Positions 2,958-19,158 of a DNA stretch of 64,000 nucleotides are shown here, piece by piece. The stretch is taken from IMG/VR virus record IMGVR_UViG_3300027974_000032, positions 1 to 64,000 of that record; one strand, 5' to 3'. Within the stretch, counting starts at the first letter, position 1. The number at the start of each line of letters is the position of its first letter. The position numbers and the translations under genes are program-made. This DNA is from a virus. The notes beneath the pieces were generated by a model, which saw nothing but the letters and a program-made list of their open reading frames with translations, did no database searches and was not told the origin of the DNA.

Positions 2958-2986
2958 TATAACATACCTACTAACAAAGGATTACA

Positions 2987-3985: not shown

Positions 3986-4029
3986 GATTATCTGCAAACC
4001 AGCGGTATATAAAAATATATCAAAAGTTT

Positions 4030-4814: not shown

Positions 4815-4830
4815 TTTATTATAGCATGGC

Positions 4831-4859
4831 TTGACAGGTCTGGTTTTAAACTGTATACT
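4831..4859 (+). promoter_or_regulatory. sigmaA-type promoter for tRNA-Arg (divergent TATAAT at 4818-4823 on minus strand)
   Basis: TTGACA-17-TATACT. Confidence 0.8.
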
Positions 4860-4867
4860 TAGTGTAT

Positions 4868-4943
4868 ACCCCTGTAGTTCAGTGGACAGAACGATGGACT
4901 TCTAAGCCATGCGTCGCAGGTTCGATTCCTGCCAGGGGTACCA
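4868..4943 (+). tRNA. tRNA-Arg(UCU)
   Basis: ACCCCTG/CAGGGGT; CTTCTAA loop; GTTCGATTC; CCA. Confidence 0.92.
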
Positions 4944-4984
4944 ATGGTTATGCTGTATAATTAAAATAGAAATGAGGCTGATTT

Positions 4985-6001
4985 TTGACAATAGATATAC
5001 TTGAACAATATTCTTATAATGAAGAAACAAAGAAACTTTTAGATTTTTATTTATTGCAACTTAATAGCCCTTCTTTTATTCCTGGAATAATAAAAATGAC
5101 AAGAGATAATTTAAACGTGCAAGAGGGGCTCACAACATTTGACGAAGTTAATGAATATAAAATAAATAATAATGGGTTTAGAGGTTCTAATTTTACAAAT
5201 AAACAGATAGATATTTTGGGTGCTGGTTGCTCTGTGACTTTTGGCATTGGTGTGCCAGAAGATGGGACATGGGTTAAGATTTTGTCAGAAATTCAAAATA
5301 AAAGTTATGTCAACCTATCTCTACCAGGATCTTCAGTAACTGAAATTTGTAATAAGATAGTAAAGTATTGTATGAATTATGGTAATCCAAAATCTGTTTA
5401 TTGCCTATTCCCTGATTTCTTTAGAATGCTTTTTGTGCAAGATTTTAATTATGATGTTGCTAAAAAATATCTTGGTAGTAGTTCTAATATTGACAAAACC
5501 ATAAAACTTTCTACTCCAAATGTTGCTAACACAATGTCTCATTTTTATGAAAATAATAAAGACAAGTTGTTAGTCGAAATTGATAGAAAAGATGGTAGGT
5601 CTTTAGAAAATTCTATATCACCACATCAGGCAGTTCTAGAATCAATTAACTCAATATACTTTTTAGAATCTTTTTGTAAAACAAACAACATAAAACTATT
5701 TTGGTCCACATGGTCTAATATTACAAAAGTTTTGCTTGATAAACTAAATGAAATTAAAAATTTTGAACTAACACAATATTTTGCATTTGATGAAATAACA
5801 TATAAAACTTATAATCCAAATAATATTGTAAATAAATGCAAATCTTCTCATGACTCAAAATTTATATCTAGTATTTGTTGGGAAGAGGGCAGTGATTTTA
5901 TGGCAGAAAATAATAAAAAGGTTAAGCACTTTATGTCACATCCTGGAATTCATTTTCACTATCACACCGCAGAAATGTTTAACTCATTAGTTGACCAATA
6001 G
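4985..6001 (+). CDS. SGNH/GDSL-like hypothetical protein; paralog of 23061..23954
   Basis: NNNGFRG...GAGCSVTFGIG...NLSLPGSS...HPG. Confidence 0.6.
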   Translation: MTIDILEQYSYNEETKKLLDFYLLQLNSPSFIPGIIKMTRDNLNVQEGLTTFDEVNEYKINNNGFRGSNFTNKQIDILGAGCSVTFGIGVPEDGTWVKILSEIQNKSYVNLSLPGSSVTEICNKIVKYCMNYGNPKSVYCLFPDFFRMLFVQDFNYDVAKKYLGSSSNIDKTIKLSTPNVANTMSHFYENNKDKLLVEIDRKDGRSLENSISPHQAVLESINSIYFLESFCKTNNIKLFWSTWSNITKVLLDKLNEIKNFELTQYFAFDEITYKTYNPNNIVNKCKSSHDSKFISSICWEEGSDFMAENNKKVKHFMSHPGIHFHYHTAEMFNSLVDQ

Positions 6002-6019
6002 CGTTTTAAGTGCTATACT
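5991..6019 (+). promoter_or_regulatory. promoter of tRNA cluster
   Basis: TTGACC-17-TATACT with TG extension. Confidence 0.75.
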
Positions 6020-6031
6020 AATATAGTACAT

Positions 6032-6104
6032 TGGCCCATAACTCAGTTGGTAGAGTGCCGAACTGTTAATTCGGATGTCCCAGGATCGAAACCTGGTGGG
6101 CCAG
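6032..6104 (+). tRNA. tRNA-Asn(GUU)
   Basis: TGGCCCA/TGGGCCA; CCGAA-CTGTTAA-TTCGG; T-loop variant GATCGAAA. Confidence 0.88.
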
Positions 6105-6108
6105 CGAA

Positions 6109-6182
6109 GGTCTCGTAGTTCAGTTGGTTAGAACGCCACCCTGTCACGGTGGAGGTCGACGGTTCGAGTCCGTTCGGGATCG
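6109..6182 (+). tRNA. tRNA-Asp(GUC)
   Basis: CCACC-CTGTCAC-GGTGG; GTTCGAGTC. Confidence 0.92.
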
Positions 6183-6186
6183 CAAG

Positions 6187-6257
6187 GCGAGTGTTGCATA
6201 ATGGTAGTGCATCATCCTTCCAAGTTGATTGTGCCAGTTCGATTCTGGTCACTCGCT
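6187..6257 (+). tRNA. tRNA-Gly(UCC)
   Basis: GCGAGTG/CACTCGC; CTTCCAA loop; GTTCGATTC. Confidence 0.9.
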
Positions 6258-6267
6258 CTAGTAACAA

Positions 6268-6340
6268 GTCTCCATGGTCTAGGGGCCTAGGACTCCACCC
6301 TTTCACGGTGGCAACACGGGTTCGAATCCCGTTGGAGATA
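6268..6340 (+). tRNA. tRNA-Glu(UUC)
   Basis: GTCTCCA/TGGAGAT; CCACC-CTTTCAC-GGTGG; GTTCGAATC. Confidence 0.92.
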
Positions 6341-6341
6341 C

Positions 6342-6902
6342 ATGAGTATAATAGTTGCAACATATCCAAGGTCTGGTTCAACATACCTTACATTGTTATT
6401 TTCTTTTGCTTTTAATCAGAAAATTGATAAGGTACACCTTGATCAAGATGGTCAGTTAGAAGATTTAAAAAACTATGATTTTTCAATTGGAACAGTTAGA
6501 GAGCCAGTCGACTCTATTACATCAATTGTTGCCATGGAAGCACTTCATTTTAGAAACGGTGATGAATTTGAATCATATACAAATGAAACAATAGAAAAAA
6601 GAATAAAAGAGTATGTAAATTTTTATACATTATCACTTAGCAATATTGATCTATTATTTGATTACGATAAAATTAATTCTAAAAGGTTTGAAATTCTTGA
6701 TTATGTATCCACAGTTACTAATAATAAAATAATCAACAAAGAGTATATTGATTTAGTTAAAGATAGACCAGAAATAGGTTACTTAAGATCTTCAAAAACT
6801 TATGATCGATATGATTTAATAAGGGAAAAGGTTTTATCCTATGACCTATCTGAATGTTTTATCGTTTACAATAAGAACAAAATGCAGACTGTGGATCTTT
6901 AA
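6342..6902 (+). CDS. sulfotransferase-domain-like protein; paralog of 2293..2844
   Basis: ATYPRSGSTYL, VREPVDSITS. Confidence 0.65.
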   Translation: MSIIVATYPRSGSTYLTLLFSFAFNQKIDKVHLDQDGQLEDLKNYDFSIGTVREPVDSITSIVAMEALHFRNGDEFESYTNETIEKRIKEYVNFYTLSLSNIDLLFDYDKINSKRFEILDYVSTVTNNKIINKEYIDLVKDRPEIGYLRSSKTYDRYDLIREKVLSYDLSECFIVYNKNKMQTVDL

Positions 6903-7470
6903 AAGCAATAGATACAGAGTGTCTAGGTGTTAAAGATTCTACACTATGAACAACAAATTTTGGTATGTACATAAAGTCACCTTCACGCAAATGGTGCTCC
7001 TGAATTCCTTCATCTTTGTATATTCTCCAAAGAGTTTCACCTTCATTTTGAATAAAAAACCCATCAACATCATCAATATGTATAGTAGGTCTAAAAGACT
7101 CTGGACTAAGAACTTCTTGTGGCTGTTGGTGTGGTGTTCTTTGTATAAACTTTTCCTTAAACTCAACTCCATCTTGGTCATTTAATTCATTGCTTCTACC
7201 TGTAAGAAAGTGTAAAATTGACATTGCCCCTATGGGCTCTCCACCATGAACATGCTGAATATCTTTAATTATTTCATCATACACACTAGTATATTTTTCT
7301 GTATTTTCTATAGCCATTGTTGCAAAAGATACATGCCTTATGTTTCTTTCGTTTGCTACATCGTAAACCTCAGATACATCTTTCCATTTAGCAGATTTGC
7401 TTATTTCATTTCTTAAAACAACTACATTCCTTGCTTTTTTTGCACCCTCAATTTGATCCTTAGTAAACAT
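6859..7470 (-). CDS. JmjC/cupin-4-like oxygenase
   Basis: HIDDVDGFFIQNEGETLW...EGDFMYIPKFVVHSV. Confidence 0.7.
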   Translation of the reverse strand: MFTKDQIEGAKKARNVVVLRNEISKSAKWKDVSEVYDVANERNIRHVSFATMAIENTEKYTSVYDEIIKDIQHVHGGEPIGAMSILHFLTGRSNELNDQDGVEFKEKFIQRTPHQQPQEVLSPESFRPTIHIDDVDGFFIQNEGETLWRIYKDEGIQEHHLREGDFMYIPKFVVHSVESLTPRHSVSIAFKDPQSAFCSYCKR

Positions 7471-7610: not shown

Positions 7611-8266
7611 TATTTAAACAACCTATCTATTCGTGTTTGTTTTGTGTAGTCTTTTGCTGAAAGCAATATTGATTCTGATTTTCCTACTGGTACACAATTT
7701 GGAACCATCTTTCCATTTTTATCTTTCATGCCTCTTTGAACATATCCTTCCCAACATGGGTCAGCCTTTCCAATTGAAGAGTCATACATTGCCATTTGTG
7801 TTTCTGCATCCAATCCACCACCACATTCAGGGCATGATGCACAAGCAATATTTTGTTCTATGCATATCGCACACTCACATTTTTGATAAGTATTTGTTGG
7901 CATTATAGGATTTTCTGGCAGTGGTGCATCTGCTTTCATTGATTCGTTGATAGGAATAGGATTAGCACATGTTGGACAATCTGGACAGTCTACATTCATT
8001 TGCTTACACATTTCACAATCACATCCCTGATAGGTAGATAAAGGAATTATTTCATTCTGAATTGATTTACCAAATGCTGATCCAGCCCAAATCTCTACAC
8101 CTGGTTTATTATGTATACCAGAACCAAGTGGTCGTCCTTGATTTGTTCTCATGTATTGTGGCTTTTTCATTCCCACTGAAGGATTGATATGTGGGGAAGG
8201 ATTTGCTGGTTCTGGATCTGTAACAATAGGGTTATTGTGTACACTCATTGGGGTATCAGACTTCAT
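7610..8266 (-). CDS. Cys-rich modular protein with CWxGY...VPNCV module
   Basis: Two TYQxCxCxxC-x5-CxxCPxC units; CWEGYVQRGMKDKNGKMVPNCVP; TACAAT 7 nt before ATG. Confidence 0.7.
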   Translation of the reverse strand: MKSDTPMSVHNNPIVTDPEPANPSPHINPSVGMKKPQYMRTNQGRPLGSGIHNKPGVEIWAGSAFGKSIQNEIIPLSTYQGCDCEMCKQMNVDCPDCPTCANPIPINESMKADAPLPENPIMPTNTYQKCECAICIEQNIACASCPECGGGLDAETQMAMYDSSIGKADPCWEGYVQRGMKDKNGKMVPNCVPVGKSESILLSAKDYTKQTRIDRLFK

Positions 8267-9015
8267 ACTTTATATTGTACCATAGTAAATCCCTGGGGTT
8301 TTGGGGGAATTACAAGGGTGGTCATGCCAAGTTTTCCAAAAAACTCTTTTGGATCAGTATCTCCAATTAACTCTATTAGGCTTGATGCTTTATCTATTAA
8401 TGTTTTGCTTCCTTCTTCATGTCCAGCATTTACCAAAAGAGCAATCTCACGGTCTTCCTCAAAAACATCAATAGTTTTTTGTAGTATCTCCTTCATAGCA
8501 GTTTTGTGATCTAATATAACAGAGCAGTATGGAAGATCTTTTATGTTATTTAAATGAGACAATATCTCATGCTGTTCTAAACCAAAAAGTTCAAGTACCA
8601 CATATGCCTTTTCACCTGTAACAATACCAGAAAGTGCAATTGCCATTGGCCCAATGCTTGGTCCCGCTATAATATCTACTGGATATTTTAATGTATGTAA
8701 ATGCTTTATAAGCATGGAGCCTGGGTCTGCTGTACCTGGATAGCCCATCTCAACAATTAAAACAACATCCTCATTGTTATCAAGTTTATCAGTTACCATA
8801 TCATAAAATTCATCACTATGCTGAAATTCAATTGGTTTCTTCTTTAGTGTAATACCTAAAAAATCTAAATCTTTATAAAATTGCTCTTCTTTTTCTACGA
8901 TAATGTTATTAGACCTTTTAAATAATTCTATGACTCTGCTTGGAAGATCTTTTTTATTTCCAAGATGACTTGGAGCAATTATTAGTTTACCTACATTAGT
9001 TTTTATTTCCAACAT
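8263..9015 (-). CDS. RsmI-like (TP_methylase fold) SAM-dependent methyltransferase
   Basis: LIIAPSHLGNKKDL, EMGYPGTADPG, IIAGPS...ALSG match RsmI motifs PIGNLED / SDAGxPxISDPG / PGPSA. Confidence 0.7.
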   Translation of the reverse strand: MLEIKTNVGKLIIAPSHLGNKKDLPSRVIELFKRSNNIIVEKEEQFYKDLDFLGITLKKKPIEFQHSDEFYDMVTDKLDNNEDVVLIVEMGYPGTADPGSMLIKHLHTLKYPVDIIAGPSIGPMAIALSGIVTGEKAYVVLELFGLEQHEILSHLNNIKDLPYCSVILDHKTAMKEILQKTIDVFEEDREIALLVNAGHEEGSKTLIDKASSLIELIGDTDPKEFFGKLGMTTLVIPPKPQGFTMVQYKV

Positions 9016-9028
9016 ATGAAACTATCTA

Positions 9029-9478
9029 TTAGTCAATTTCATTTTCTTTGCTTACTGCTGAAAGCATCCAGTGCCATCTTTGATGCTGGTCCATTCTTTC
9101 TGCAAAGAAGTTTGCAAGTGCATGTTGTCTATTGGCTGTGGCCATTTCCACTGCATCTGCTAATTTTGATAGCACCATGTCGTTTGCCATAAGTAAATCA
9201 GCAGACATTGTCATTGGATCAGAAGATACTTCTGGCTCCCCAACTTCATTTAATTCTATAAATCTTGATAGTTTGAATGGTGCATATGCATCTAATTTTC
9301 TCAACCACTCTGCATATGTATCTGTTGCTGACTCATAGTCTGCATATATGTCACCAAAAAAACTATGAAACTGAGGAAAATCATCACCCTCTACATTCCA
9401 GTGATACCCGTGAGCCTTTAACTTAAGAGTTATATTATCTGCAAGCAACACCTTTAGTAAATTTATGATTTGATCCAT
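9029..9478 (-). CDS. dps: Dps DNA-protection ferritin-like protein
   Basis: AHGYHWNVEG..F..FH..F..IY; HQRWHWML. Confidence 0.92.
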   Translation of the reverse strand: MDQIINLLKVLLADNITLKLKAHGYHWNVEGDDFPQFHSFFGDIYADYESATDTYAEWLRKLDAYAPFKLSRFIELNEVGEPEVSSDPMTMSADLLMANDMVLSKLADAVEMATANRQHALANFFAERMDQHQRWHWMLSAVSKENEID

Positions 9479-9498
9479 ATAACCATTATAGCATGAGG

Positions 9499-9765
9499 TT
9501 ATTCAGCAAGGCGTTGATGTGTTCTTACTCTATGGCAATTAGCGCAAACTACTTCACACTTTTCTATCTCTTTTTTAATGGCTTTCCATGAAAAACCATC
9601 ATGTATCATTCTGGATATATTGTATTTTTTATCTCTTATGTGGTCAAAATCTAATATTATATGGTTTCCTATGCCACAGTCTACACAGCCAGAATCTTCC
9701 TTTATCTTAGCAAGCATCTTTTTATACTGCTGCTTATTATAATGTTCCAACTCTTTGTCAGTCAT
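9499..9765 (-). CDS. small HNH endonuclease
   Basis: CVDCG...LDFDH...CEVVCANCHRVRT; leaderless TATAAT-7-ATG. Confidence 0.85.
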   Translation of the reverse strand: MTDKELEHYNKQQYKKMLAKIKEDSGCVDCGIGNHIILDFDHIRDKKYNISRMIHDGFSWKAIKKEIEKCEVVCANCHRVRTHQRLAE

Positions 9766-9789
9766 TGATGTTATTATACCGCCAAATGT

Positions 9790-9877
9790 TAAGCCCTACA
9801 CAGGCAATTCACCTGACTTGCGCCACGGTCTCTATCCAATGGGTAACTAATCCATCACTAAGGTCCTGTGTAGGGAC
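9790..9877 (-). ncRNA. putative structured sRNA A (three-way junction)
   Basis: TGCTACAAT -10 at 9884-9889; perfect 11-bp P1 CCCUACACAGG/CCUGUGUAGGG; P2 UGAUGG/CCAUUG; P3 with GCAA tetraloop. Confidence 0.65.
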
Positions 9878-9894
9878 AACATAATTGTAGCATG

Positions 9895-10005
9895 AAAAAT
9901 GAGCACTTTATAGACTTGCTCAGGTCCCCCAGGGTGCGACCCTGGGCGTATCCGTACTCAGCAATAAGGTCGCTTAAAAAGCAACTGCATGTATCATGAC
10001 GGAAT
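9895..10005 (-). ncRNA. putative structured sRNA B (four-way junction + hairpin + terminator)
   Basis: TATAAT at 10011-10016; UCCGU/ACGGA closing three hairpins; CCCAGGGU/ACCCUGGG; UGAGCA/UGCUCA-U5. Confidence 0.6.
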
Positions 10006-10016
10006 ATTCTATTATA

Positions 10017-10433
10017 CTACTGAATTTCAATAGTTTTTGGCTTTTTATCTTCAGGAACAATTCTCTCAATTTTTACTTTGAGTAGTCCATCACTAAGGGA
10101 TGCGCCAACAACCTCCATATATTCTCCAAGAGCAAAAAACTTTCTAAAATTTCTAGAAGCAATGCCCTTATGGACAAACGAAGTTTCTTCTTCGTCAAGT
10201 TTTAACCCATGAATGTCAAGTTGGTTCCCATGTACACTAACATCGATTTCTTCTTTTGTGAATCCTGCAACTGCAAGTTCGATCATATAGTTATCTTCAT
10301 TGATTTTGATTAAGTTATGTGGTGGATAATTTGTTGAAAATATCTCTGTATTATCTTTCATTCTTTGGATATCTTTTCCAAAGCCAATAAAAAATGGATC
10401 ATTAAATAGATCCATAGCAAGTTTTGTTACCAT
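10017..10433 (-). CDS. hsp20: small heat shock protein (Hsp20/IbpA-like)
   Basis: NYPPHNL...IELAVAGF...HKGIASRNF...DGLLKV. Confidence 0.95.
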   Translation of the reverse strand: MVTKLAMDLFNDPFFIGFGKDIQRMKDNTEIFSTNYPPHNLIKINEDNYMIELAVAGFTKEEIDVSVHGNQLDIHGLKLDEEETSFVHKGIASRNFRKFFALGEYMEVVGASLSDGLLKVKIERIVPEDKKPKTIEIQ

Positions 10434-10489
10434 TTTATTCCCCTTTCAAGCGAATAAGTTAATTACCCCCCATTTGGGCAGGTAATAAT
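10434..10489 (-). promoter_or_regulatory. ROSE-like RNA thermometer in hsp20 5'UTR
   Basis: UUAUUCGCUU-GAAA-GGGGAAUAA pairs SD with UCGCU (bulged G); upstream second hairpin; TGCTATAAT at 10490-10498. Confidence 0.7.
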
Positions 10490-10501
10490 ATTATAGCATA
10501 G

Positions 10502-10534
10502 AAAAGCAGGCTAGTCAAATCACAACTAGCCTGC
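10502..10534 (-). terminator. rho-independent terminator
   Basis: GCAGGCTAGT/ACTAGCCTGC 10-bp stem followed by TTTT on minus strand. Confidence 0.75.
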
Positions 10535-10542
10535 CAATCTAA

Positions 10543-10806
10543 TTACTTCTTTGCTGCTGTCTTCTTAGCAGGTGCCTTCTTTACAGTAGCCTTCTTTGCT
10601 GCTGCATCAACTTCCACTACATCTGGCATCTTGCCAAATGCTGTGTCGTTTGGATTGACTGCTCTTAATGCCACGGGCGCTAAGGCTGCCAATAGTGAGT
10701 ATGCAAGTGTCTTAGGATCTGTAACCCCAGACATATATAGTGCAAGCGCAGCGCCAAGAACTGATCGTCCGTATGATGCTAGCAATGCCTTTGTTGTTTC
10801 ATTCAT
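10543..10806 (-). CDS. holin-like membrane protein with basic tail
   Basis: Two hydrophobic segments, LNPND..FG-type motif, KKAPAKK tail. Confidence 0.55.
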   Translation of the reverse strand: MNETTKALLASYGRSVLGAALALYMSGVTDPKTLAYSLLAALAPVALRAVNPNDTAFGKMPDVVEVDAAAKKATVKKAPAKKTAAKK

Positions 10807-10816
10807 AATTTTCCTC

Positions 10817-10975
10817 CTAGGATATTATATTTGTTAGTACTGTGAAACCAATCCATAAACCAATAATTCCTGCGACTCCCGCAAAAACTGGTGGTGCTGG
10901 TACTGGTAACTTGAATGCAGCAAAAACTACGCCACATCCAAACCCTGTTAGTGTTGATAGTATTACGTCCTTCAT
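10817..10975 (-). CDS. XapX/DUF1427-domain small membrane protein (52 aa)
   Basis: Not in track: MKDVILSTLTGFGCGVVFAAFKLPVPAPPVFAGVAGIIGLWIG. Confidence 0.75.
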   Translation of the reverse strand: MKDVILSTLTGFGCGVVFAAFKLPVPAPPVFAGVAGIIGLWIGFTVLTNIIS

Positions 10976-11580
10976 TGATTAACCTCGCTTAGTTGTTTTA
11001 GATTCATATTTATAACACATCTAAAATTATTTTTTTGTGGAGCATAGTTTGTGTGATACATACTACCATCAAAGATTACAATGCTTCCAGCCTTTGGGTT
11101 TATGGTTTTAAAAACTGTTAACTCAGATTGATTGTATACTTTTCCAGAATACTTTTGATTATAAATTACTGTATCTCCATCAGAATCATTTACATAATAG
11201 ATAACAACAAAATGTTTTTCATCATTGTCAACGTGTGGCCAAGACAATCGCAGTTCTGTTGTACGAGATGTTAAATTAGACTTTGATCTGACTACTCTAA
11301 CTGGTCCTAATATATTAAAAATGTTTAATTTGCTTAAAATGCTGTAAGAAATTTTTAATATTGGTCCTTCTGGAGAGTTAGAGTTATTTCCAGAAACTAA
11401 GAATGGGTAATCAGAAAACATATCACCTATGACATAGCCAGGAGTATTTATGTCTGAGGTTATTTCTGCAGGGTTAAGAAAAAATGGTTGTAAATACATC
11501 ACATTATTTTCAATATCTAAAACTTCTTGTTTACTTAAAAAGTTATCGCTGTAAAAAAAGAAAGGGTCTTCCGTACTCAA
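10972..11580 (-). CDS. 2OG-Fe(II) oxygenase-like protein
   Basis: PHVD...IYYVNDSDGDT...FDGSMYH...RCVINMN. Confidence 0.75.
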   Translation of the reverse strand: MSTEDPFFFYSDNFLSKQEVLDIENNVMYLQPFFLNPAEITSDINTPGYVIGDMFSDYPFLVSGNNSNSPEGPILKISYSILSKLNIFNILGPVRVVRSKSNLTSRTTELRLSWPHVDNDEKHFVVIYYVNDSDGDTVIYNQKYSGKVYNQSELTVFKTINPKAGSIVIFDGSMYHTNYAPQKNNFRCVINMNLKQLSEVNQ

Positions 11581-11744
11581 CTGATATCTCCGCTATTCCT
11601 TATATCATCATAGTGGTGTGAACATACATCAATTATTCTTGTTTCTGTTGCCCATATTTTTTCAGACTCTTCTTTGCATGATTCAACCTCGCATACTTGA
11701 AATGCTGAGTATATTAAATCCCTTGGATTTTTTAGTTTTATCAT
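11577..11744 (-). CDS. small Cys/His zinc-finger protein (55 aa)
   Basis: VCEVESC...DVCSHHY; coupled to both neighbours. Confidence 0.6.
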   Translation of the reverse strand: MIKLKNPRDLIYSAFQVCEVESCKEESEKIWATETRIIDVCSHHYDDIRNSGDIS

Positions 11745-12169
11745 TACTCTAGTTTACCATAGTCGTCTGGTATAAGTTTCTTTAATTCTTTATAGGCATT
11801 CGATATCTTTTTCATGGATGGATAGTGTGGGTAGGCGTCTCCAACAACTCCATACTCATCAAAATATTCAATTTCGGGTTCAATTTCATTAATAAAGATT
11901 GCAATTGCTTTTTGAACATCCTCAATATAGTCAAAAGCCCAGTCTCTAGATTGAGAAACAAACTTTAAGAACCCATCAGTATTTTCAACTGATTTTGTTT
12001 CTGAAGAGTTCATTTCCTCTAATAGCCTTTCGGCAAAGATATTTCTATCTATGGCTATTTGAAGATTTTTGCTTACTAATGAGTTATTCTTTAATCTTAA
12101 ACTAACATTATTGAACATTAATAAAGAAAATAAAAAAACAAAAATACATGAGACTATAAGTTCAGTCAC
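11744..12169 (-). CDS. hypothetical protein with N-terminal TM helix
   Basis: 141 aa ORF in operon. Confidence 0.7.
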   Translation of the reverse strand: MTELIVSCIFVFLFSLLMFNNVSLRLKNNSLVSKNLQIAIDRNIFAERLLEEMNSSETKSVENTDGFLKFVSQSRDWAFDYIEDVQKAIAIFINEIEPEIEYFDEYGVVGDAYPHYPSMKKISNAYKELKKLIPDDYGKLE

Positions 12170-12420
12170 TATGGTTTCCCACCTTCTCTTACAAGAAGAA
12201 CAATGGCCCCATTATCCTCTAATGCATTTTTAACATTTACCATATACTCTACAGCCTCACGCTTTTGATCATCAGAAAGTCTCATAAAATCTTCTTCTTT
12301 TGCCTTTACTGTTAAAAAGTGATCATGATCAATTAACTGCAAGGAAAAGTTTTTGGGAGCACGTATTGAATGAAAAGCCATTCTCATCTGATCTGTATAC
12401 ACTATGCTTCTCTTTTCCAA
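12169..12420 (-). CDS. hypothetical protein
   Basis: 83 aa ORF in operon. Confidence 0.65.
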   Translation of the reverse strand: MEKRSIVYTDQMRMAFHSIRAPKNFSLQLIDHDHFLTVKAKEEDFMRLSDDQKREAVEYMVNVKNALEDNGAIVLLVREGGKP

Positions 12421-12614
12421 TGAACAAAAGACTTTATGTACACAGCAGAATATGCCGTTGCCATTGCAATAAATCCATACTGTTTAGTTGCTAGGGCATA
12501 TGCAATCCATATGCACTCATTGGTAAGTAGCACAAGCCATCCCCAAATTGTTTTTCTTCCAACAAAATATATTCCAGTTACTCCAACTACAGCAAGAACC
12601 CAAGACCACCACAT
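12402..12614 (-). CDS. PnuC-like small membrane protein
   Basis: 3 TM segments, WGWLV...WIAYAL..KQYGF pattern. Confidence 0.55.
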   Translation of the reverse strand: MWWSWVLAVVGVTGIYFVGRKTIWGWLVLLTNECIWIAYALATKQYGFIAMATAYSAVYIKSFVHWKREA

Positions 12615-12615
12615 A

Positions 12616-13062
12616 CTAACCCTTATCTATTAGACCCACATAATCACTACATATACCATATATCGTATCATAATCTACACCAGAAGTCAAGTCAACATCA
12701 ACTAAAACTGATAATCTTGATACAGGTTTTTCTGGATAAGTCCAAATAATATTTTGACTTGTTAAAGTAAAGTCATCTTCCTGATGCCAAAAAAAATTAC
12801 AAAATTTAAAGTTTTTTGCAAAAATATAAAGAGCCTCTAGATTTTTGCAATGAAACCAAGCAACATCTGCCACATCCATAATAAAAAATGGATCTACTGG
12901 GTATAGTGGTTCACTGTGTCCAAGAAAAAAGTTACCATTAATAAACCAGATGTCAATTTCAACTTCATATCCAAGTTCTATTGCATTTAAGATGTATTCT
13001 GGAACATTTTCAAGGTCTGGGTTTGCTCCGTAAACATTGCCTCGATGTGCTATTTTAATCAA
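12616..13062 (-). CDS. glycerophosphodiester phosphodiesterase-like protein
   Basis: IAHRGN...EN...VEIDIW...LGH...GICSDY. Confidence 0.75.
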   Translation of the reverse strand: MIKIAHRGNVYGANPDLENVPEYILNAIELGYEVEIDIWFINGNFFLGHSEPLYPVDPFFIMDVADVAWFHCKNLEALYIFAKNFKFCNFFWHQEDDFTLTSQNIIWTYPEKPVSRLSVLVDVDLTSGVDYDTIYGICSDYVGLIDKG

Positions 13063-14423
13063 TGGCTGACCCTATTAGATAAATAATAATTTAAATCTTC
13101 TGGAGTTCCAACTCCCCACATTTTTTTAATATCGCTAGTAAAAATTCTTTTATTATCTAAAATTGCTTCATTAAAAACTGGGCAGACATAAAACTCATTA
13201 TTAGTTCTAATATTTTTATCAATCATTTGTTCTGAATACTTAACAAAATCAGAACCATGTTTCCAATAATATATACCAACTGTTGCTATATCACTAATAG
13301 GCTTTTTTTCTGCTACTTCAACAACTAATCCATTATCATCAACCCTAGCATATGACCATTTTGGATGTGTTGATTTAAATGTTGCTATTCCTCCATCTGC
13401 ATTTTTTGTCATTAGGTCATATATAAACTGTCGACTATTCCATTCTACTATTTGATCAGAGTTTGCCATAATAAGCGGACTTTCGCTATCTATATATTCT
13501 TTGGCTAAAAGGCATGTTACTGCAGCCCCCTCAGTAACTCCATCTACCTGAACAATATTGCATTCTGGAGTGATAAGATTTAATAAATAAGACAGATTAT
13601 ATTTTTCGTAGTGCTCTTTTTGTACTATATAGGTATACTTTGCTTTTACCCCAAGAGACTCCACCACAGCCTGAATCATGGGTTTGCCATCTACTTCGAC
13701 CAATGGCTTAGGGAATACGTATCCAGCATCCTTAAAACGGCTTCCAAGCCCAGCCATGGGTATTAGAACATTAAGGCCCTGATCTTTCCAAGTTGCTCCG
13801 CTATATTTTAAAAGACTAATAGCCTTATTAATCTTATCTTCTGTAAGGTCTGTTCTATTCTTAATTTCAATTAGATTTGCCTTGCTATCTCTTGCTGCTA
13901 ATTTCCCAACAAGACTATCTTCAAAAATAACTGTCTCATCTGCAATTACACCAAAGTGTGACATGGCTTGCCAGTACATTTCTGGGTGTGGCTTTGGATT
14001 TTTAACATCTTCATTACTTACAACGTGGTCTACTAAGTTTAAGACTCCTAAACTTTTGAGACAGTCAATAACTGTTTTACTAATGCTGTTACTTGCTACG
14101 GCTATATTAATATTATTATCTTTAATCATAGTAAGCAGTCTAACTAAATCTTTGTCTTCTGGAATATTGGAAAACATTGTGCTTGTTATTTCTTGTTTTA
14201 TTGACCACACACTATCAAACATTTCTTCTGGAAGACCTTTGTATTTATTTAAAAGGCTTAGTTTTGCTTTTGTTGGTAGACCCTCATATATATTTTCTTG
14301 CTCTTCTTTTGTTATAACATAAGATATGTCAAGTGATCTAAGTGCGTCATTGAGTGCATCAAAATGAATTGTTTTGCTATCAACAAGTACCCCATCTAAA
14401 TCAAAAGCAATCAACTTATTCAT
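13059..14423 (-). CDS. HAD phosphatase - sugar nucleotidyltransferase fusion
   Basis: FDLDGVLVDS, KPHPEMY, FEDS; then IPMAGLGSRF...PKPL...GTPEDL. Confidence 0.88.
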   Translation of the reverse strand: MNKLIAFDLDGVLVDSKTIHFDALNDALRSLDISYVITKEEQENIYEGLPTKAKLSLLNKYKGLPEEMFDSVWSIKQEITSTMFSNIPEDKDLVRLLTMIKDNNINIAVASNSISKTVIDCLKSLGVLNLVDHVVSNEDVKNPKPHPEMYWQAMSHFGVIADETVIFEDSLVGKLAARDSKANLIEIKNRTDLTEDKINKAISLLKYSGATWKDQGLNVLIPMAGLGSRFKDAGYVFPKPLVEVDGKPMIQAVVESLGVKAKYTYIVQKEHYEKYNLSYLLNLITPECNIVQVDGVTEGAAVTCLLAKEYIDSESPLIMANSDQIVEWNSRQFIYDLMTKNADGGIATFKSTHPKWSYARVDDNGLVVEVAEKKPISDIATVGIYYWKHGSDFVKYSEQMIDKNIRTNNEFYVCPVFNEAILDNKRIFTSDIKKMWGVGTPEDLNYYLSNRVSH

Positions 14424-15417
14424 CTTTGTTCCTTGAGTCTATAAAGTTAAATGCTGGAGTAGACACAATTCTTTTAATTAATGTATCTGCTTCTGTATTT
14501 ATATTTGGAAAACCAAAATAGTTGCAGTTTTTTCTAAAAGCAATTGCATGATAAAAATGATGTTGACCTTCTTCAAACCCAAACCGATTTTCTGTTTTAT
14601 CCATATAGTTTACATGAGAAACATTTGTTATTAGTGTTGTCATTAATTCTATAACTGTGCCACCTGGCTGCATAAACATAACATTTGTCAGTCCACCACC
14701 AGTAATTCCTACTATAGTATCAACTTCATAGAAATAGTTTAACTGATCTTCAAAAGAATCAAAATCTTCTGGGATCACAACCTCAAATCCATTATCAAGA
14801 AAAAAGTTTTCAAGTTTTTCTTCATCATCTATTCTATTATAGGTATTTCTTGTCAGTTTTTTAGAAAACTCTTCTCCATATTGCTTATTCTTATAATTAG
14901 TTAAACCCTTTCTACTCAAATATACTTTTCTAAAAGGCTTAACATCTTGATTTTTAATAAAAGGCATTACATATTTCATCAATATGTTTGATGCATTATG
15001 ATCTACAACCCTCTGGGTTCTTATGTAGAAATTATCAATATTAACGCTGCTACCCTTTGTTAGATCTACCTTTTCATAATTAACATTATGATAATCTAAT
15101 AGTTTAAAGCAAAACTCATTTACCTTGTGAGTCACTGGTGTTCTATTTGGAATAGACACATCTATAATAAACAATGTATCAGGATTAAGTTCAAATATAT
15201 GAAAGACCGTTCCTAAAAAATCATGCATACAATGATAAAAACTTATTGGAAGCCTCATGATCATTTTTGTTTGATCTGAATAAAAGGACATACTTTCTTC
15301 ATTAACTGGCTCTAACACACGAAAGTCTGGATTATATCCAACATTCCAAGAATACTTATCCTTGATGAGTTCATAGTCACTATCAGAAGTGGTTATTGTT
15401 TGAATTGTTACTGCCAT
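14416..15417 (-). CDS. glycosyltransferase family 61 (DUF563)-like
   Basis: RKVYLSR...RI.DEE.LE..F...GFEVV.PE..SFEDQ..F...IVG.TGGGLTN.MFMQPGGTVIEL. Confidence 0.75.
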   Translation of the reverse strand: MAVTIQTITTSDSDYELIKDKYSWNVGYNPDFRVLEPVNEESMSFYSDQTKMIMRLPISFYHCMHDFLGTVFHIFELNPDTLFIIDVSIPNRTPVTHKVNEFCFKLLDYHNVNYEKVDLTKGSSVNIDNFYIRTQRVVDHNASNILMKYVMPFIKNQDVKPFRKVYLSRKGLTNYKNKQYGEEFSKKLTRNTYNRIDDEEKLENFFLDNGFEVVIPEDFDSFEDQLNYFYEVDTIVGITGGGLTNVMFMQPGGTVIELMTTLITNVSHVNYMDKTENRFGFEEGQHHFYHAIAFRKNCNYFGFPNINTEADTLIKRIVSTPAFNFIDSRNKDE

Positions 15418-15701
15418 TATTGCTCCATAGTCATTCTAGTCCAAAAACTTCCCCAGTCTTTTTTATTCCTATGACTATTATACTCCCTTGATATCTCACC
15501 TGACTCTAGGTATACCCCGCCCCAAATACCCCATTCCTTCCCAGTAACTCCAACTGCAAAACAGTTTTTGCTTACTGGACATGAAGAACAAAGTTTATCT
15601 ACGGCTGGCCTCAGAATCTCATCGTCTTCATATTTATCAAAGAATAAGTCTGTGTCATAGTCTAAACAAGAAGATTGATCTTTCCATTCATGTTTAGCCA
15701 T
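15417..15701 (-). CDS. whiB: WhiB-family Fe-S transcription regulator
   Basis: Start MAKHEW at 15701; W....C...D.DLFF...CxxCPV...C...GIWGG. Confidence 0.9.
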   Translation of the reverse strand: MAKHEWKDQSSCLDYDTDLFFDKYEDDEILRPAVDKLCSSCPVSKNCFAVGVTGKEWGIWGGVYLESGEISREYNSHRNKKDWGSFWTRMTMEQ

Positions 15702-15912
15702 TAGTTTCCACGAACTTACTTGGTATATCCCAACCAGTTCTATTTGCCTCGTATCTAGTCTGAATATGCCATTTGCCATTAACTAGAGCACCATTTGCAG
15801 ATGACCTAGCCTTATCAGATGGGATGGAGTTTACTACTGTCCAACCATCCCAAGATAGTGTCTTATTGTTTTCAACAACTTTTTCCATATGTTCTAATGT
15901 TTTGATAATCAT
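15694..15912 (-). CDS. hypothetical protein
   Basis: 72 aa, AGGAG SD. Confidence 0.7.
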   Translation of the reverse strand: MIIKTLEHMEKVVENNKTLSWDGWTVVNSIPSDKARSSANGALVNGKWHIQTRYEANRTGWDIPSKFVETNG

Positions 15913-15921
15913 TTCATTCTC

Positions 15922-16272
15922 CTAGTATCTAAATATTCCGACTTCGACATTATTTAATTGTGCGGTATCGATTAATTTTGAGACTTGCTCACCCTCATTT
16001 GAAAGGAAAGCCATATAGTTAAATGTCTCAATATTTTCAGATATCCACTGTGGTGCAACTTTAAAAAACTTAATCTTTTTACCTCTAGACTTCATCCCTC
16101 TTTCAGAAAGATTTATGAATTCAGAAACCATAGAGTTTATGTTTGCTGGACCAGCAGAATATACATAAAAATATTCATCTTCTATTGGAAGTCCAGAAAG
16201 GGCTACACCCATTGCACGAAGAAATACTTGGTAGTCACTAAAACTACTTGTTCCCTGTACTCCCACTATCAT
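15922..16272 (-). CDS. SLOG/YspA-like hypothetical protein
   Basis: MIVGVQGTSSFSDY resembles SLOG N-terminal G-S/T-R-x-F-x-D-Y. Confidence 0.45.
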   Translation of the reverse strand: MIVGVQGTSSFSDYQVFLRAMGVALSGLPIEDEYFYVYSAGPANINSMVSEFINLSERGMKSRGKKIKFFKVAPQWISENIETFNYMAFLSNEGEQVSKLIDTAQLNNVEVGIFRY

Positions 16273-16660
16273 TTTTATCTCCATCTGTTAATTGATCTAT
16301 TATAAAGATCATCTTGTCTAATTCTACCTTACCCATACCCATTGTGTCAACTACACGTGTGCTCTCCTTATTTATCCCGTTCTCATCAAATTCTGCTGTG
16401 TGAAATAGGTTATCCTTAATCCAGTATGCAGATCCCTCCACGATAATAACACGAACATTATGTTTATCTTCATATTTAGTTGCTTGGGTGGAAAGCCTTT
16501 TCTTTGCTGGAGGATGAAGATCTAGCAATGGCTTGACTAAAGAATATATATGACTTTGGCTATATTTTATTTGCCCAGTCTCCCTTTTTGGAATAGGAAA
16601 TCTAAGTCCAATAAAAACAATAGACGCAAAGGTAATAAAAGATCCAAGCAAATATTTCAT
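16244..16660 (-). CDS. hypothetical protein with N-terminal TM helix
   Basis: 138 aa, GGGGAG SD. Confidence 0.7.
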   Translation of the reverse strand: MKYLLGSFITFASIVFIGLRFPIPKRETGQIKYSQSHIYSLVKPLLDLHPPAKKRLSTQATKYEDKHNVRVIIVEGSAYWIKDNLFHTAEFDENGINKESTRVVDTMGMGKVELDKMIFIIDQLTDGDKNDSGSTGNK

Positions 16661-16683
16661 TTTTCTCCCCTGAAACTATTGTA

Positions 16684-17013
16684 CTACCCTTGTTCCATTA
16701 TTCTAATAATTTCCTTTAGACTAAATTGCATACCTTTATCTAATCTTAAAACCTCAGACTTATCTATAGCCTTTTGTGTTAGTTTAACCATAGGATTTTT
16801 GTCTGTTACATCCATATCAATATATCCAAGGCTCCAAAGAGACATAACGTCTTGATGAAAATATGAAAAGAATTCATTATGTAGTTCTGGGTTTACCTCT
16901 TCTAACTTATTAGTAAAGTTATATAGGGGTTCTCCTGTCTCCATATCAATACCACAAGCCTCTAGCGCTCCCGCAAGAATTAGTTCCTCAATTATCTTAT
17001 CTTCTTCATTCAT
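16684..17013 (-). CDS. hypothetical protein
   Basis: 109 aa in operon. Confidence 0.7.
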   Translation of the reverse strand: MNEEDKIIEELILAGALEACGIDMETGEPLYNFTNKLEEVNPELHNEFFSYFHQDVMSLWSLGYIDMDVTDKNPMVKLTQKAIDKSEVLRLDKGMQFSLKEIIRIMEQG

Positions 17014-17257
17014 TTACAAACTCCAAAAATTGTTCACGAGTTTTGGCACCATTCATCCGCTTAACCTCTATACCATCATTAATCAAAACGTAGGTGGGAA
17101 CAGATTTGATGCCAAATTTTTCTATTAGTTCAAGTTCTGTATCTGCATCAACAAATATAAAATCAACCAACCCCTCACGCTTAAGTTCATCGGCAACTGG
17201 CTTTGTCCTTTGACATGGATTACACCAATCTGCTGTAAAATAAAGTACATGCTTCAT
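17006..17257 (-). CDS. thioredoxin
   Basis: FTADWCNPC...VDAD...SVPT. Confidence 0.9.
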   Translation of the reverse strand: MKHVLYFTADWCNPCQRTKPVADELKREGLVDFIFVDADTELELIEKFGIKSVPTYVLINDGIEVKRMNGAKTREQFLEFVNE

Positions 17258-17895
17258 TTAACTAATACTACACTAAACTTGGTGTTTTTGCAAGACTTCA
17301 AACCTGTGGCAATAAAGTTTTTTTCAGTTTTATCTACAGACAAACTCCATCTAACTTTAATTGAAACCCAATTTACTAAGTACTCACAAGCATAGGCTTT
17401 ATTTGTTGGCATCCATTCTGCTGGATCTTGGTCAGACTTAGATCTATTTGAACCACCAGTTACAGCAATTAAGTGACGAGGATCTGTTTGGTCATTAGCA
17501 TACATCTCCTTCTTTGCTGCATCCCAAGCAGATGCACCAGAGTCCCAAGCCTCTGCAAGTGGAACCATATGATCTACATCTAGTTTCCCTGCTTCTGTAA
17601 CCACAATATTATCATAGATGCTTAGCCATTGCCCACCCTTAATTACACAGCCTTTTTCAACTACAGGCTTCTTAACTGCCTCAGCAATAATTACTGCCTT
17701 GCGTGAGTCACAACCATTTCCAGCACCTGTCCAGTGCTTAAATAGTGTACGCTTATATCCTGTACGAACCTCATCTGCTACTTTAAGAGTATTCAAAGCA
17801 GTTGTAGCATCCTTATATGATACTGTACTTGCTGCTTGAGCAGCACTTGCAACCATAGAAATACTAATGATTGCGGTTAATAATAGTTTACGCAT
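17254..17895 (-). CDS. secreted DUF1524/HNH-family nuclease
   Basis: Signal peptide MRKLLLTAIISISMVASAAQA; DVDHMVPLAEAW.SGA, NRSKSDQDPAEW. Confidence 0.85.
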   Translation of the reverse strand: MRKLLLTAIISISMVASAAQAASTVSYKDATTALNTLKVADEVRTGYKRTLFKHWTGAGNGCDSRKAVIIAEAVKKPVVEKGCVIKGGQWLSIYDNIVVTEAGKLDVDHMVPLAEAWDSGASAWDAAKKEMYANDQTDPRHLIAVTGGSNRSKSDQDPAEWMPTNKAYACEYLVNWVSIKVRWSLSVDKTEKNFIATGLKSCKNTKFSVVLVK

Positions 17896-18097
17896 TCTTT
17901 CTCCCCCAATTAATTTTATCCCAAATTCTTTCATGCCAATAATAAATTCCAACCTTAACAATTGTTTCCCACATTGCAATTAGAGCAGAAAGACTTCCTT
18001 TTCCAGTAATAGCATAGGCAACCAAAAAAGATGATAATGTACCAAAAATACGATAACTTAATGACTTCGTAAATGATCTTTGTTTAGTTACTTTCAT
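17888..18097 (-). CDS. DUF2061 small membrane protein
   Basis: RSFTKSLSYR...YYWHERIW.KI.WG. Confidence 0.8.
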   Translation of the reverse strand: MKVTKQRSFTKSLSYRIFGTLSSFLVAYAITGKGSLSALIAMWETIVKVGIYYWHERIWDKINWGRKNA

Positions 18098-18297
18098 TCT
18101 CTACCCCATGACGTTTTGTTCCATGCTCTTTCATGAACATAATAAAGTATAAAGTTTATGCCATTTGTTAAAAGAGTTCCAACCCAGGCTACTTTGATCT
18201 CACCACTAACAATATAGATTGATATAAAAGTTGTTATAAGTGCTATAACTCTCCATGTTAATGATTTTATTAATGATCTTTTTTTATTTACGTTCAT
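18094..18297 (-). CDS. DUF2061 small membrane protein
   Basis: RSLIKSLTWR...YYVHERAWNK.SWG; start MNVNKK. Confidence 0.8.
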   Translation of the reverse strand: MNVNKKRSLIKSLTWRVIALITTFISIYIVSGEIKVAWVGTLLTNGINFILYYVHERAWNKTSWGRE

Positions 18298-18427
18298 TTT
18301 TGTCGCCAAACATTATTCGCTCTTCTGCTTCATTCATTTTCTTGCCAGACTCTTCAATATAACTAAATGCTGAAACACTTATTTTTTTTATAAAATTAAA
18401 TATAATAATAAATACTTTATTCATCAT
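18284..18427 (-). CDS. small hypothetical protein (47 aa)
   Basis: MMNKVFIIIFNF...; ATGA coupling fills operon gap. Confidence 0.45.
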   Translation of the reverse strand: MMNKVFIIIFNFIKKISVSAFSYIEESGKKMNEAEERIMFGDKNERK

Positions 18428-19158
18428 TTTTCCTTTCCAGAAATCACAAGTGTTGGTTGCTGAACCCTGTTTTTTAAAACAAAGTCCATTATATCACTTA
18501 ACTTTCCTTCCATCATAAACTCATCTTGTGTTGTTAAGTTGCTCAAAAGAGTCATCTCTTTTTCTGCACCCAAATGATACAGTAACTCTTTAAAAAATAT
18601 ATCCTGTATCTCATGATGATAAAATATTACTGATGGATATTGACTATTTTTTATATTTTCGTATATATATTTTTTGTTCTTATCATAAAAGATCATTCCA
18701 TAAAAAGAAAATGATTGACCATAGTAAAATTTAGAATAAGATAGTGAGTCAATTACTGAGGATGGGCCTGGTAAAATTTTGTATTTAATACCTTTTGATA
18801 TGGCTAACTGCCTAATTGTATCAAATGGATCTTGAACAATTGCACTTCCCTCATCAGATAAGCACAAAACAGTTTCATTTAAAGAAATATGCCTCATTAC
18901 CTCATCAGACATTCTTTGTCCGCTATTGTTGACACCCTTTAAATCATGAGTTATACCATTTGTCATAAAATCTCTTGGAGAAAAACTAACTATCTCTCCA
19001 GTAAAGTTTAACTCATAGCGATCAATTATTTCTTTTATGGTTTCTTCATTTTCAACAGCAAGAACTTCTGCTTTTTCAATATGATTGACTAAATTATATG
19101 TTAAGTCGTCTAGGTTACCTATTGGCATTGTTCCAAATATTAGTTTTGCATTACTCAC
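18424..19158 (-). CDS. RsmI-like SAM-dependent methyltransferase (second copy)
   Basis: TMPIGNLDDLT, LSDEG...QDP, LPGPSS, FSFYG, LTTQDE. Confidence 0.75.
   Translation of the reverse strand: MSNAKLIFGTMPIGNLDDLTYNLVNHIEKAEVLAVENEETIKEIIDRYELNFTGEIVSFSPRDFMTNGITHDLKGVNNSGQRMSDEVMRHISLNETVLCLSDEGSAIVQDPFDTIRQLAISKGIKYKILPGPSSVIDSLSYSKFYYGQSFSFYGMIFYDKNKKYIYENIKNSQYPSVIFYHHEIQDIFFKELLYHLGAEKEMTLLSNLTTQDEFMMEGKLSDIMDFVLKNRVQQPTLVISGKEK

Follow-up and report, generated by a model that had tools for sequence, protein, structure and literature searches.

Two RsmI-like methyltransferase genes in one phage

The DNA analysed here is the first 64 kb (positions 1 to 64,000, hereafter the window) of the 75,014-bp IMG/VR virus record IMGVR_UViG_3300027974_000032, a phage sequence with a CheckV completeness of about 69%. 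On the minus strand the window carries two intact open reading frames (ORFs), termed MT-A and MT-B. Their coordinates are exactly those of the original prediction, a reading of the DNA letters that proposed two divergent phage copies of RsmI, the enzyme that 2'-O-methylates C1402 of 16S ribosomal RNA (rRNA).

8263 to 9015, minus strand: MT-A, 250 residues, a putative class III methyltransferase of RsmI descent that lacks the C-terminal domain (CTD) of RsmI; 'NH-type', a label for the Asn/Ser-His that stands where RsmI has T19-P20
18424 to 19158, minus strand: MT-B, 244 residues, GTG start, a putative RsmI-derived class III methyltransferase without the RsmI CTD; 'MP-type', marked by a clade of its own, Phe at the RsmI G102 position and an insert of ~16 residues at residues ~59-80

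Contigs that are at least 99% identical, from two independent 2025 samples, bridge the ferritin-like gene, MT-A and the next gene, and likewise a DUF2061 gene, MT-B and a kinase gene; thus, neither methylase gene is an assembly artefact. As originally proposed, both proteins keep RsmI-like motifs, namely an N-terminal (P/H)xGN..D, the Glu of the AEDTR box, D-P-G/F and G-P-S, and they are strongly divergent from each other (21% identity; BLASTP E 3e-5). Both exceed the gathering score of the Pfam family PF00590 TP_methylase (27.8 bits), MT-A with 40.7 bits and MT-B with 42.7 bits, and the top NCBIfam model for both is that of RsmI, TIGR00096 (E 1.8e-12 for MT-A and 1.3e-13 for MT-B). It should be emphasized, however, that the corresponding scores of 47.3 and 51.0 bits are less than a third of the equivalog cut-off of 167.9 bits, which was exceeded in a control search by ten of ten bacterial controls, so that neither protein has the standing of an RsmI equivalog. 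The NCBIfam tetrapyrrole models gave E-values of at least 1e-4 at best for either protein, and MT-A had no match at E<=0.1 to the uroporphyrinogen-III and precorrin models (TIGR01469, TIGR01465 and CysG NF007922). The PHROGs and PADLOC libraries contained no model matching MT-A or MT-B.

RsmI is the nearest characterised relative of both proteins

When the family profiles were compared with all PDB sequences, MT-B found the RsmI orthologue 3KWP at E 4.5e-20 and RsmI itself at 6e-17, with entries of this group ranging to 7.8e-17, and MT-A found RsmI (5HW4/9PZG) at E 2e-16, with the RsmI group ranging to 4.5e-13. Next in both searches were the short RsmI-like structures 1WYZ and 3HH1 (E 3e-10 to 5e-7), followed by a precorrin-4 methylase (7.8e-5) and diphthine synthase (9.7e-5). 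The diphthine synthase (Dph5) entry 3i4t matched the MT-A profile at E 1e-4, compared with 2e-16 for RsmI, and the MT-B profile had no match to diphthine synthase at E<=1.

The AlphaFold (AF2) models, with predicted local distance difference test (pLDDT) values of 83 for MT-B and 79 for MT-A, adopt a two-domain alpha/beta fold and match more than 200 class III structures in Foldseek at E<=1e-3. The MT-B model superposes on RsmI with Z 20.6-20.9 and a root mean square deviation (rmsd) of 3.1-3.5 Å over 216-222 residues, against Z <=16.4 for tetrapyrrole methylases, and the MT-A model reaches Z 13.3-14.1 with RsmI against <=10.5 with other structures. The large rmsd between MT-A and RsmI reflects a difference in the predicted orientation of its two domains; its N-domain by itself superposes on 3HH1 at 2.3 Å. 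By hidden Markov model (HMM), profile and predicted structure, RsmI is the nearest characterised relative of both proteins, ahead of the tetrapyrrole methylases and diphthine synthase, and in this respect the original assignment stands.

Two other groups require comparison. The tetrapyrrole C-methylases (CobA/SUMT, CysG, CbiF/CobM and CbiL) share the PF00590 family and the overall fold with the phage proteins, but lie 4-5 Z units lower, have E-values at least 10 orders of magnitude worse, and their family cut-offs are missed ~10-fold. The structures 1WYZ (Bacteroides thetaiotaomicron, 242 residues) and 3HH1 (Chlorobium tepidum, N-domain) resemble MT-A and MT-B in being TP_methylases of ~230-240 residues without the RsmI CTD, and in the structure comparisons, too, they follow immediately on RsmI; these, however, are cellular rather than viral, match the phage families far more weakly than RsmI does, and allow no transfer of function.

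The catalytic core is kept and the ribosome contacts are replaced

The interaction of RsmI with its substrate was described in a 2026 cryo-electron microscopy study of the enzyme on the 30S subunit (PMC13037946), in which the C-terminal three-helix domain (residues 244-286) binds h23b; deletion of the CTD from E. coli RsmI leaves almost no activity. Helix 44 (h44) is unwound and held by T19, P20, N23, D45-T46-R47, F144, R174, R196, K200 and W202, and in the E. coli enzyme T19Y and N23Y block methylation fully, K200E eliminates activity, K200A lowers it, and R196A/W202A substantially cut it (PMC13037946). The Mg2+ is coordinated by E44, D92 and D100 and also by the 2'-O of C1402 and the phosphate of C1403, the ligands E44 and D100 positioning the 2'-O and 3'-phosphate; E44A is nearly inactive, whereas D92A is tolerated (PMC13037946). 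The mutation A124L abolishes binding of S-adenosylmethionine (SAM) to RsmI (PMC5053481).

E. coli RsmI (locus L011) was aligned with 97 true RsmI sequences and both phage families. T19, P20, N23, D45, T46, R47, R196, K200 and the aromatic residue at 202 are invariant in the 97 true RsmI proteins. At these nine h44 positions, in order, MT-B has M, P, N, N, E/D, E, S, T and D/K, and MT-A has N, H, S/N, H, E, D, I, L/W and N; the DTR box (D45-T46-R47) thus reads N-E/D-E in MT-B and H-E-D in MT-A. Within the MT-A family only three columns contain at least 80% Lys or Arg, and none of these is at a known RNA contact. Both families stop at about residue 233-242 of E. coli RsmI. The RsmI_C domain (PF23016) was not found in the whole 75-kb record at E<=1, in a search whose control matched 10 bacterial genomes, and thus the CTD is not supplied in trans by this record.

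Most of the residues that bind SAM and hold the Mg2+ in RsmI persist. G22, D26, E44, G94, D100, P101 and G121-P122-S123 are invariant in both phage families and in the 97 true RsmI proteins. In the numbering of the phage proteins, E41 and D97 of MT-A (RsmI E44 and D100) are invariant, and MT-B keeps E36, D102 and D110 (RsmI E44, D92 and D100). The D92 position is conserved in 22 of the 23 MT-B family members and is occupied by His, Glu or Gln in the MT-A family. Among 106 short paralogues, E44 is Glu or Asp in 105 and D100 is Asp in 102. With respect to the SAM-binding residues that the original prediction expected to be kept, the picture is divided: MT-B retains the pocket fully (A/S124, I21, F169 and L198), and MT-A retains most SAM-site residues but deviates at the SAM contact A124, which is Ile (I121 in its own numbering), its family having I/V124 in 14 of 14 members, I/L169 and G/L198.

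Judged by these residues, selection maintains a cofactor and metal core of the RsmI type in both families, and both have lost the means by which RsmI recognises the ribosome. MT-A and MT-B resemble RsmI (TIGR00096; PDB 5HW4, 9PZG and 3KWP) in the class III two-domain fold, the SAM-loop motifs, E44 as a ligand of Mg2+, and D100, which serves both SAM and Mg2+. They differ from the bacterial enzymes of the canonical clade, which have the CTD (244-286) and the h44-contact set, in being phage-encoded and present as two unrelated copies, MT-B with its insert and G102F, MT-A with His for P20 and Ile for A124. With the TIGR00096 cut-off missed, the CTD absent and the h44 contacts replaced, neither protein is, on sequence grounds, an RsmI orthologue.

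The class III fold is also used to methylate proteins and peptides, and it could be argued that one or both proteins act in this way, as do diphthine synthase and the borosin alpha-N-methyltransferases, or that one of the two, with MT-A the likelier candidate, has decayed or binds SAM without catalysis. Such a view draws on the Ile at the A124 position of MT-A, on the abundance of Asp/Arg- and prolyl-type hydroxylases encoded nearby, and on the peptide methylases OphMA, SonM and MroM, which are among the structure matches at E ~1e-10 to 1e-11. Diphthine synthase and the borosin enzymes, however, are far weaker matches than RsmI, and D100, G94, G22 and D26 of MT-A are invariant among relatives that share 35-50% identity, a sign that the cofactor pocket of MT-A is under selection. 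Protein or peptide methylation, or decay, is therefore considered improbable.

Two separate members of an apparently mostly viral radiation

MT-A has 14 homologues, which share 35-50% identity outside its own cluster, and MT-B has 23 (44-100% identity), after which come true RsmI proteins of 287-288 residues at about 26%. Each protein thus belongs to a conserved family, and the RsmI-like motifs are not a product of chance. When the MT-A family profile was compared with 1.84 billion representatives, it returned a graded series of short proteins (223-254 residues) from E 1e-79 to about 1e-24, where canonical-length RsmI starts; ~95 clusters of short proteins, defined at 50% identity, score above the true RsmI proteins or are interspersed with them. 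The nearest ESM Atlas clusters are TP_methylases of which 99% and 52%, respectively, are viral, together with one Bacteroidota cluster of 229-residue proteins. The sole name carried by the short paralogues is the automatic label 'RsmI' of the Joint Genome Institute (JGI), and their longest contigs are 78-89 kb. A search for loci with the family alignments found seven viral loci for MT-A and one for MT-B, the latter being the same contig again from a metagenome collection; with single proteins as the query, no related locus was found. Scans of 185,579 species genomes with strict patterns found no relative of either family, a weak negative given the strictness of the patterns.

Matches to MT-A and MT-B in INPHARED are at about 22-27% identity. 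Three records that appear to offer a phage RsmI, MT836336.1, MT835582.1 and OR846596.1 (loci L013-L015), were inspected and set aside: the encoded proteins, of 281-290 residues, have TPIGN, AEDTR, RELTK and the CTD, and are thus canonical RsmI in unverified records, probably bacterial DNA, which should not be cited as phage RsmI.

A core-domain tree of 197 rows was built with FastTree and a second tree of 65 rows with IQ-TREE; both contain RsmI-like sequences only, with no outgroup from outside RsmI, so the root is not fixed. Canonical RsmI, recognized by the signature TPN-EDTR-...-[RK]K-aromatic plus the CTD, lies on one side of a branch and the short forms on the other, with support of 100 in FastTree and 93 in the SH-like approximate likelihood-ratio test (SH-aLRT) in IQ-TREE. 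Both phage proteins are therefore placed outside the canonical RsmI clade. In the 197-row tree MT-B has its own clade (100) and MT-A falls within a 53-row 'NH-type' clade (95). The approximately unbiased (AU) test rejects the monophyly of MT-A with MT-B (difference in log-likelihood 297, p 2.6e-6); thus, the pair did not arise by duplication within the phage but was recruited separately from a diverse pool. MT-A and MT-B are separately acquired members of a diverse radiation of short class III methyltransferases that is apparently mostly viral, and this radiation would be either sister to, or derived from, bacterial RsmI, the tree being unrooted.

These data bear on the central claim of the original prediction, that the phage remodels host ribosomes through 16S C1402. 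Both proteins might still 2'-O-methylate C1402 or its surroundings by a mode of recognition that needs neither the CTD nor the canonical contacts. RsmI homology and the kept catalytic core are in keeping with this, as are the few CTD-less sequences inside the canonical clade and a nearby cupin (6859..7470) that matches JmjC_2, a ribosomal-oxygenase family. The TIGR00096 scores are nevertheless under a third of the cut-off, the domain that is essential in E. coli RsmI is absent, at least eight invariant h44-contact positions are replaced, and both proteins lie outside the RsmI clade. Furthermore, every bacterial host already has RsmI (10/10 controls), so a second C1402 methylase would be without an unmethylated target. 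Continued action on C1402 is thus decidedly improbable, and we consider it very probable, from the features that the proteins have lost, that neither works as a C1402 methylase in the manner of RsmI. The alternative offered in the same prediction, that the fold has been retargeted, is the better reading, as the C1402 features fail while the catalytic core persists.

MT-B is coupled to an APS-kinase-like fusion

The genes that surround MT-B are as follows.

19919 to 20500, minus strand: Asp/Arg beta-hydroxylase-like protein (cupin, 2-oxoglutarate (2OG) type); PF05118 E 4.3e-16, weak LpxO match; syntenic in locus L003
19155 to 19916, minus strand: fusion of an adenosine 5'-phosphosulfate (APS)-kinase-like P-loop part with an HxGH nucleotidyltransferase-like part, 253 residues; PF01583 E 1.7e-15, CTP_transf_like E 6.6e-4, phrog_10255
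18094 to 18309 and 17888 to 18097, minus strand: two tandem genes for DUF2061 small membrane proteins (PF09834 E 7e-14 and 1.6e-17), downstream of MT-B

The hydroxylase-like gene opens a run of hydroxylase, kinase, MT-B and DUF2061. The GTG start of MT-B overlaps the TGA of the upstream fusion gene (GTGA), an arrangement that, as read from the sequence, is ordinary translational coupling. No evidence was found for the proposed link of the methylases to leaderless and non-AUG starts; the GTG of MT-B merely overlaps the upstream stop. The APS-kinase-like part of the fusion is a half-domain, the nucleotidyltransferase motif is GRYQPWHEGH, and the protein is 64-67% identical in L003 and L006. With TIGR00455 it scores 59 bits against a cut-off of 138.7, and it matches APS kinases in the PDB at E 1e-8 to 1e-10; since the scores are far below equivalog cut-offs, its substrate need not be APS. 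The L003 contig has the same order, Asp/Arg-hydroxylase-like gene, kinase/nucleotidyltransferase, MT-B and then one DUF2061 gene.

The sequence of one contig (run X3) has the letters 18298..18421, between DUF2061 and MT-B, exchanged for 269 others, and is otherwise 99% identical. A joint from 18097 to 19165 (runs X3 and X4) would drop MT-B and one DUF2061 gene; its short side is 23 letters only, and it should be taken as a hint of relatives without MT-B, not as a finding.

The kinase-like neighbour raises the question of whether MT-B could be a CysG/CobA-like tetrapyrrole C-methylase that provides siroheme for sulfite reduction, a sulfur-assimilation auxiliary gene beside a cysC-like gene. Genes for cysC are indeed known in freshwater phages (PMC10914622), and MT-B has weak matches to cobA_cysG_Cterm and CysG (E 7e-4 to 8e-4). 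These matches, however, amount to 18-20 bits (16-19.5 bits with TIGR01469, TIGR01465 and NF007922), where the cut-offs are 185-400, and are confined to the C-domain. RsmI leads every tetrapyrrole methylase by at least 4 units of Z and by E-values more than 10 orders of magnitude lower, and the region showed no further gene for siroheme or cobalamin synthesis. A role in tetrapyrrole synthesis is highly improbable.

MT-A has different neighbours in related phages

Downstream of MT-A, the following gene is given for context.

7610 to 8266, minus strand: Cys-rich protein of 218 residues, whose ATG overlaps the MT-A stop (ATGA)

In the Cys-rich protein the repeat YQxCxCxxC...CxxCPxC occurs twice, and the C-terminal part has the motif DPCWxGY...GKxVPNCVP. 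Proteins with only the latter motif are encoded several times per genome in related phage loci and belong to several PHROGs without an assigned function. MT-A lies here between the ferritin-like gene and the gene for the Cys-rich protein; in L003 these two neighbours adjoin each other directly and MT-A is missing from the interval. A GT61 gene comes immediately after MT-A in L006 and L007, and in L004, L005, L008, L009 and L010 MT-A is divergent from a GH18-like gene. As neighbours and co-occurrence vary across L003 to L010 and a complete relative described below, MT-A and MT-B are accessory and movable, and do not form an obligate pair.

A cupin of 203 residues, encoded at 6859..7470 on the minus strand, matches JmjC_2 (ribosomal-protein oxygenase family) at E 2.5e-10 over a short stretch; it also has weak matches to 3-hydroxyanthranilate dioxygenase and is 42-48% identical in L006 and L007.

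Candidate acceptors

The preferred interpretation is that both enzymes would retain RsmI-type chemistry, that is, the metal-assisted transfer of a methyl group from SAM to the oxygen of a hydroxyl that neighbours a phosphate, and would direct it at an acceptor other than 16S C1402, probably a different one for each enzyme. MT-B might provide the methylation step in a module that leads from the hydroxylase through the APS-kinase-like/nucleotidyltransferase fusion and the methylase to DUF2061. MT-A could be a free-standing accessory gene in a 'decoration' toolkit that includes the sugar-1-phosphate nucleotidyltransferase, GT61, a carbamoyltransferase and several 2OG oxygenases. As to the class of acceptor, we tentatively place first a non-RNA molecule, which might be a small molecule that is phosphorylated or linked to a nucleotide, or else a glycan or another polymer. 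This preference is founded on the lack of a conserved basic patch in MT-A and of an RNA-binding accessory domain in either protein, on the coupling of MT-B to an enzyme whose relatives phosphorylate the 3'-OH of nucleotide ribose, and on the position of both genes amid hydroxylases, nucleotidyltransferases and glycosyltransferases.

Two metagenomic proteins join a short methylase to another enzyme and are taken as leads. In P0207 (448 residues, two copies) the C-terminal part resembles a 2OG-Fe(II) oxygenase (E 1e-4), and in P0217 (461 residues, a single copy) the methylase is preceded by an IspD-type cytidylyltransferase (E 5e-60), possibly through a fusion of gene calls. When a 63-sequence alignment was used to look for longer fused forms, none was found, which is weak evidence.

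Methylation of the ribose 2'-O prevents transesterification of RNA. It could thus be argued that MT-A and MT-B are RNA 2'-O-methyltransferases retargeted to transfer RNA (tRNA) of the host or the phage, another rRNA site or phage transcripts, and that they tune translation or block cleavage by host ribonucleases. The nearest homologue is an RNA 2'-O-methyltransferase, the residues that handle Mg2+, the 2'-O and the 3'-phosphate are kept, and the phage has seven tRNA genes (Met, Ile-tat, Arg-tct, Asn, Asp, Gly-tcc and Glu) at 2854..6341 on the plus strand, opposite to the strand of the accessory-gene block and interleaved with plus-strand ORFs. There is also precedent for the modification of stable RNA by a phage enzyme, as M.EcoPA8orf6770P-PNB-2, encoded by a prophage of Shiga toxin-producing E. 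coli (STEC), prefers 16S rRNA in the 30S subunit (PMC10810198). That enzyme is a precedent for a phage-borne methyltransferase acting on the ribosome; its fold, however, is unrelated and of the MT-A70 type, it depends on a second subunit for RNA binding, and it is not known as a 2'-O-methylase with a defined site. Against an RNA acceptor, the known RNA-contact residues are lost, with no conserved basic patch as a substitute in MT-A, and no RNA-binding accessory domain is present in either protein. In addition, neither gene adjoins the tRNA cluster or an RNA-processing gene, and the neighbours are small-molecule and glycan enzymes. Retargeting to another RNA is, in our view, somewhat unlikely. 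A more specific proposal, that virus-specific 2'-O-methyltransferases derived from RsmI have radiated onto new RNAs (for example the anticodon loop or 3' end of tRNA, other sites in rRNA, or transcripts of the phage), would imply that translation is reprogrammed or that RNAs are made immune to ribonuclease defences, the two unrelated members representing two targets; this we regard as unlikely. The non-RNA and other-RNA readings stay close, because a geometry that joins a 2'-O, a 3'-phosphate and Mg2+ fits both nucleotides that resemble 3'-phosphoadenosine 5'-phosphosulfate or 3'-phosphoadenosine 5'-phosphate (PAPS/PAP) and internal RNA nucleotides.

Several observations weigh against the preferred interpretation. 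The substrate class is deduced from the loss of RNA contacts and from gene neighbourhood, which is a poor guide where phage genomes are mosaic. Among characterised homologues the closest acts on RNA, and the kept Mg2+ site would fit any internal RNA nucleotide. The acidity of the phage families (pI about 5) is no argument against RNA binding, since the E. coli RsmI core (residues 1-243) is also acidic (pI 5.5). Absence of the CTD is not decisive on its own, because 15 of the 102 rows in the canonical RsmI clade also lack it, although these may be truncated gene calls. Coupling is not obligate: in L006 the kinase is followed directly by DUF2061, with no MT-B, and a relative rated 100% complete (111,921 bp) has one TP_methylase gene, of the MT-A type. 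The latter also led us to drop an obligate MT-A/MT-B heterodimer. The P0207 and P0217 fusions are represented by two sequences and one sequence, respectively, and the 2OG match is below the Pfam cut-off. Finally, Ile or Val occupies the A124 position throughout the MT-A clade, and as SAM no longer binds to RsmI with the A124L change, the cofactor may be bound by MT-A in another way or not at all.

The automatic JGI names for these proteins, '16S rRNA (cytidine1402-2'-O)-methyltransferase', would cast MT-A and MT-B as ribosome-remodelling auxiliary genes, a label that the evidence presented here indicates to be wrong. The radiation kept the metal-assisted O-methylation core of RsmI and discarded the ribosome grip. 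In the literature, no description was found of phage RsmI-like or short TP_methylase families. This study extends our understanding of the class III methyltransferases by showing two unrelated members in one phage, with their origin by duplication formally rejected, how large the radiation is, how the MT-A clade departs from RsmI at position 124, and the coupling of MT-B to the APS-kinase-like fusion. Identification of the acceptor would define a new activity for the class III fold, and could explain part of the 'decoration' gene sets (hydroxylases, kinases, nucleotidyltransferases and glycosyltransferases) in abundant freshwater actinophages; the two divergent copies in one phage represent a built-in comparison for assays.

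The phage and its probable host

The phage encodes a DnaE-like polymerase, a primase, a DnaB-type helicase, a UvsX-like recombinase, a terminase and tail proteins. MT-A and MT-B lie in a long minus-strand accessory region (~6.8-27 kb) that also specifies a ferritin-like protein, HSP20, WhiB, thioredoxin, a GmrSD_C nuclease, a HAD/sugar-1-phosphate nucleotidyltransferase, GT61, the carbamoyltransferase, several 2OG/cupin oxygenases, DUF2061 and CHAP proteins. One of these genes bears on the host.

15417 to 15779, minus strand: WhiB-family transcription factor (PF02467 E 9e-11)

WhiB is regarded as an indicator of actinophages (PMC10202952), which makes this phage a probable actinophage, and nine studies yielded metagenomes of freshwater, rivers and lakes in which its DNA is found again; the host is thus likely to be a freshwater actinobacterium.

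Two further genes of the region deserve mention. A HAD phosphatase (beta-phosphoglucomutase-like) is fused to the sugar-1-phosphate nucleotidyltransferase in a protein of 454 residues, whose gene overlaps the GT61 gene (13059..15417, minus strand). Among the decoration genes there is also a GmrSD_C (DUF1524-type nuclease) protein (17254..17979, minus strand; E 6e-10) without GmrSD_N, and a contig (run X5) skips this gene, with a joint from 17243 to 17898.

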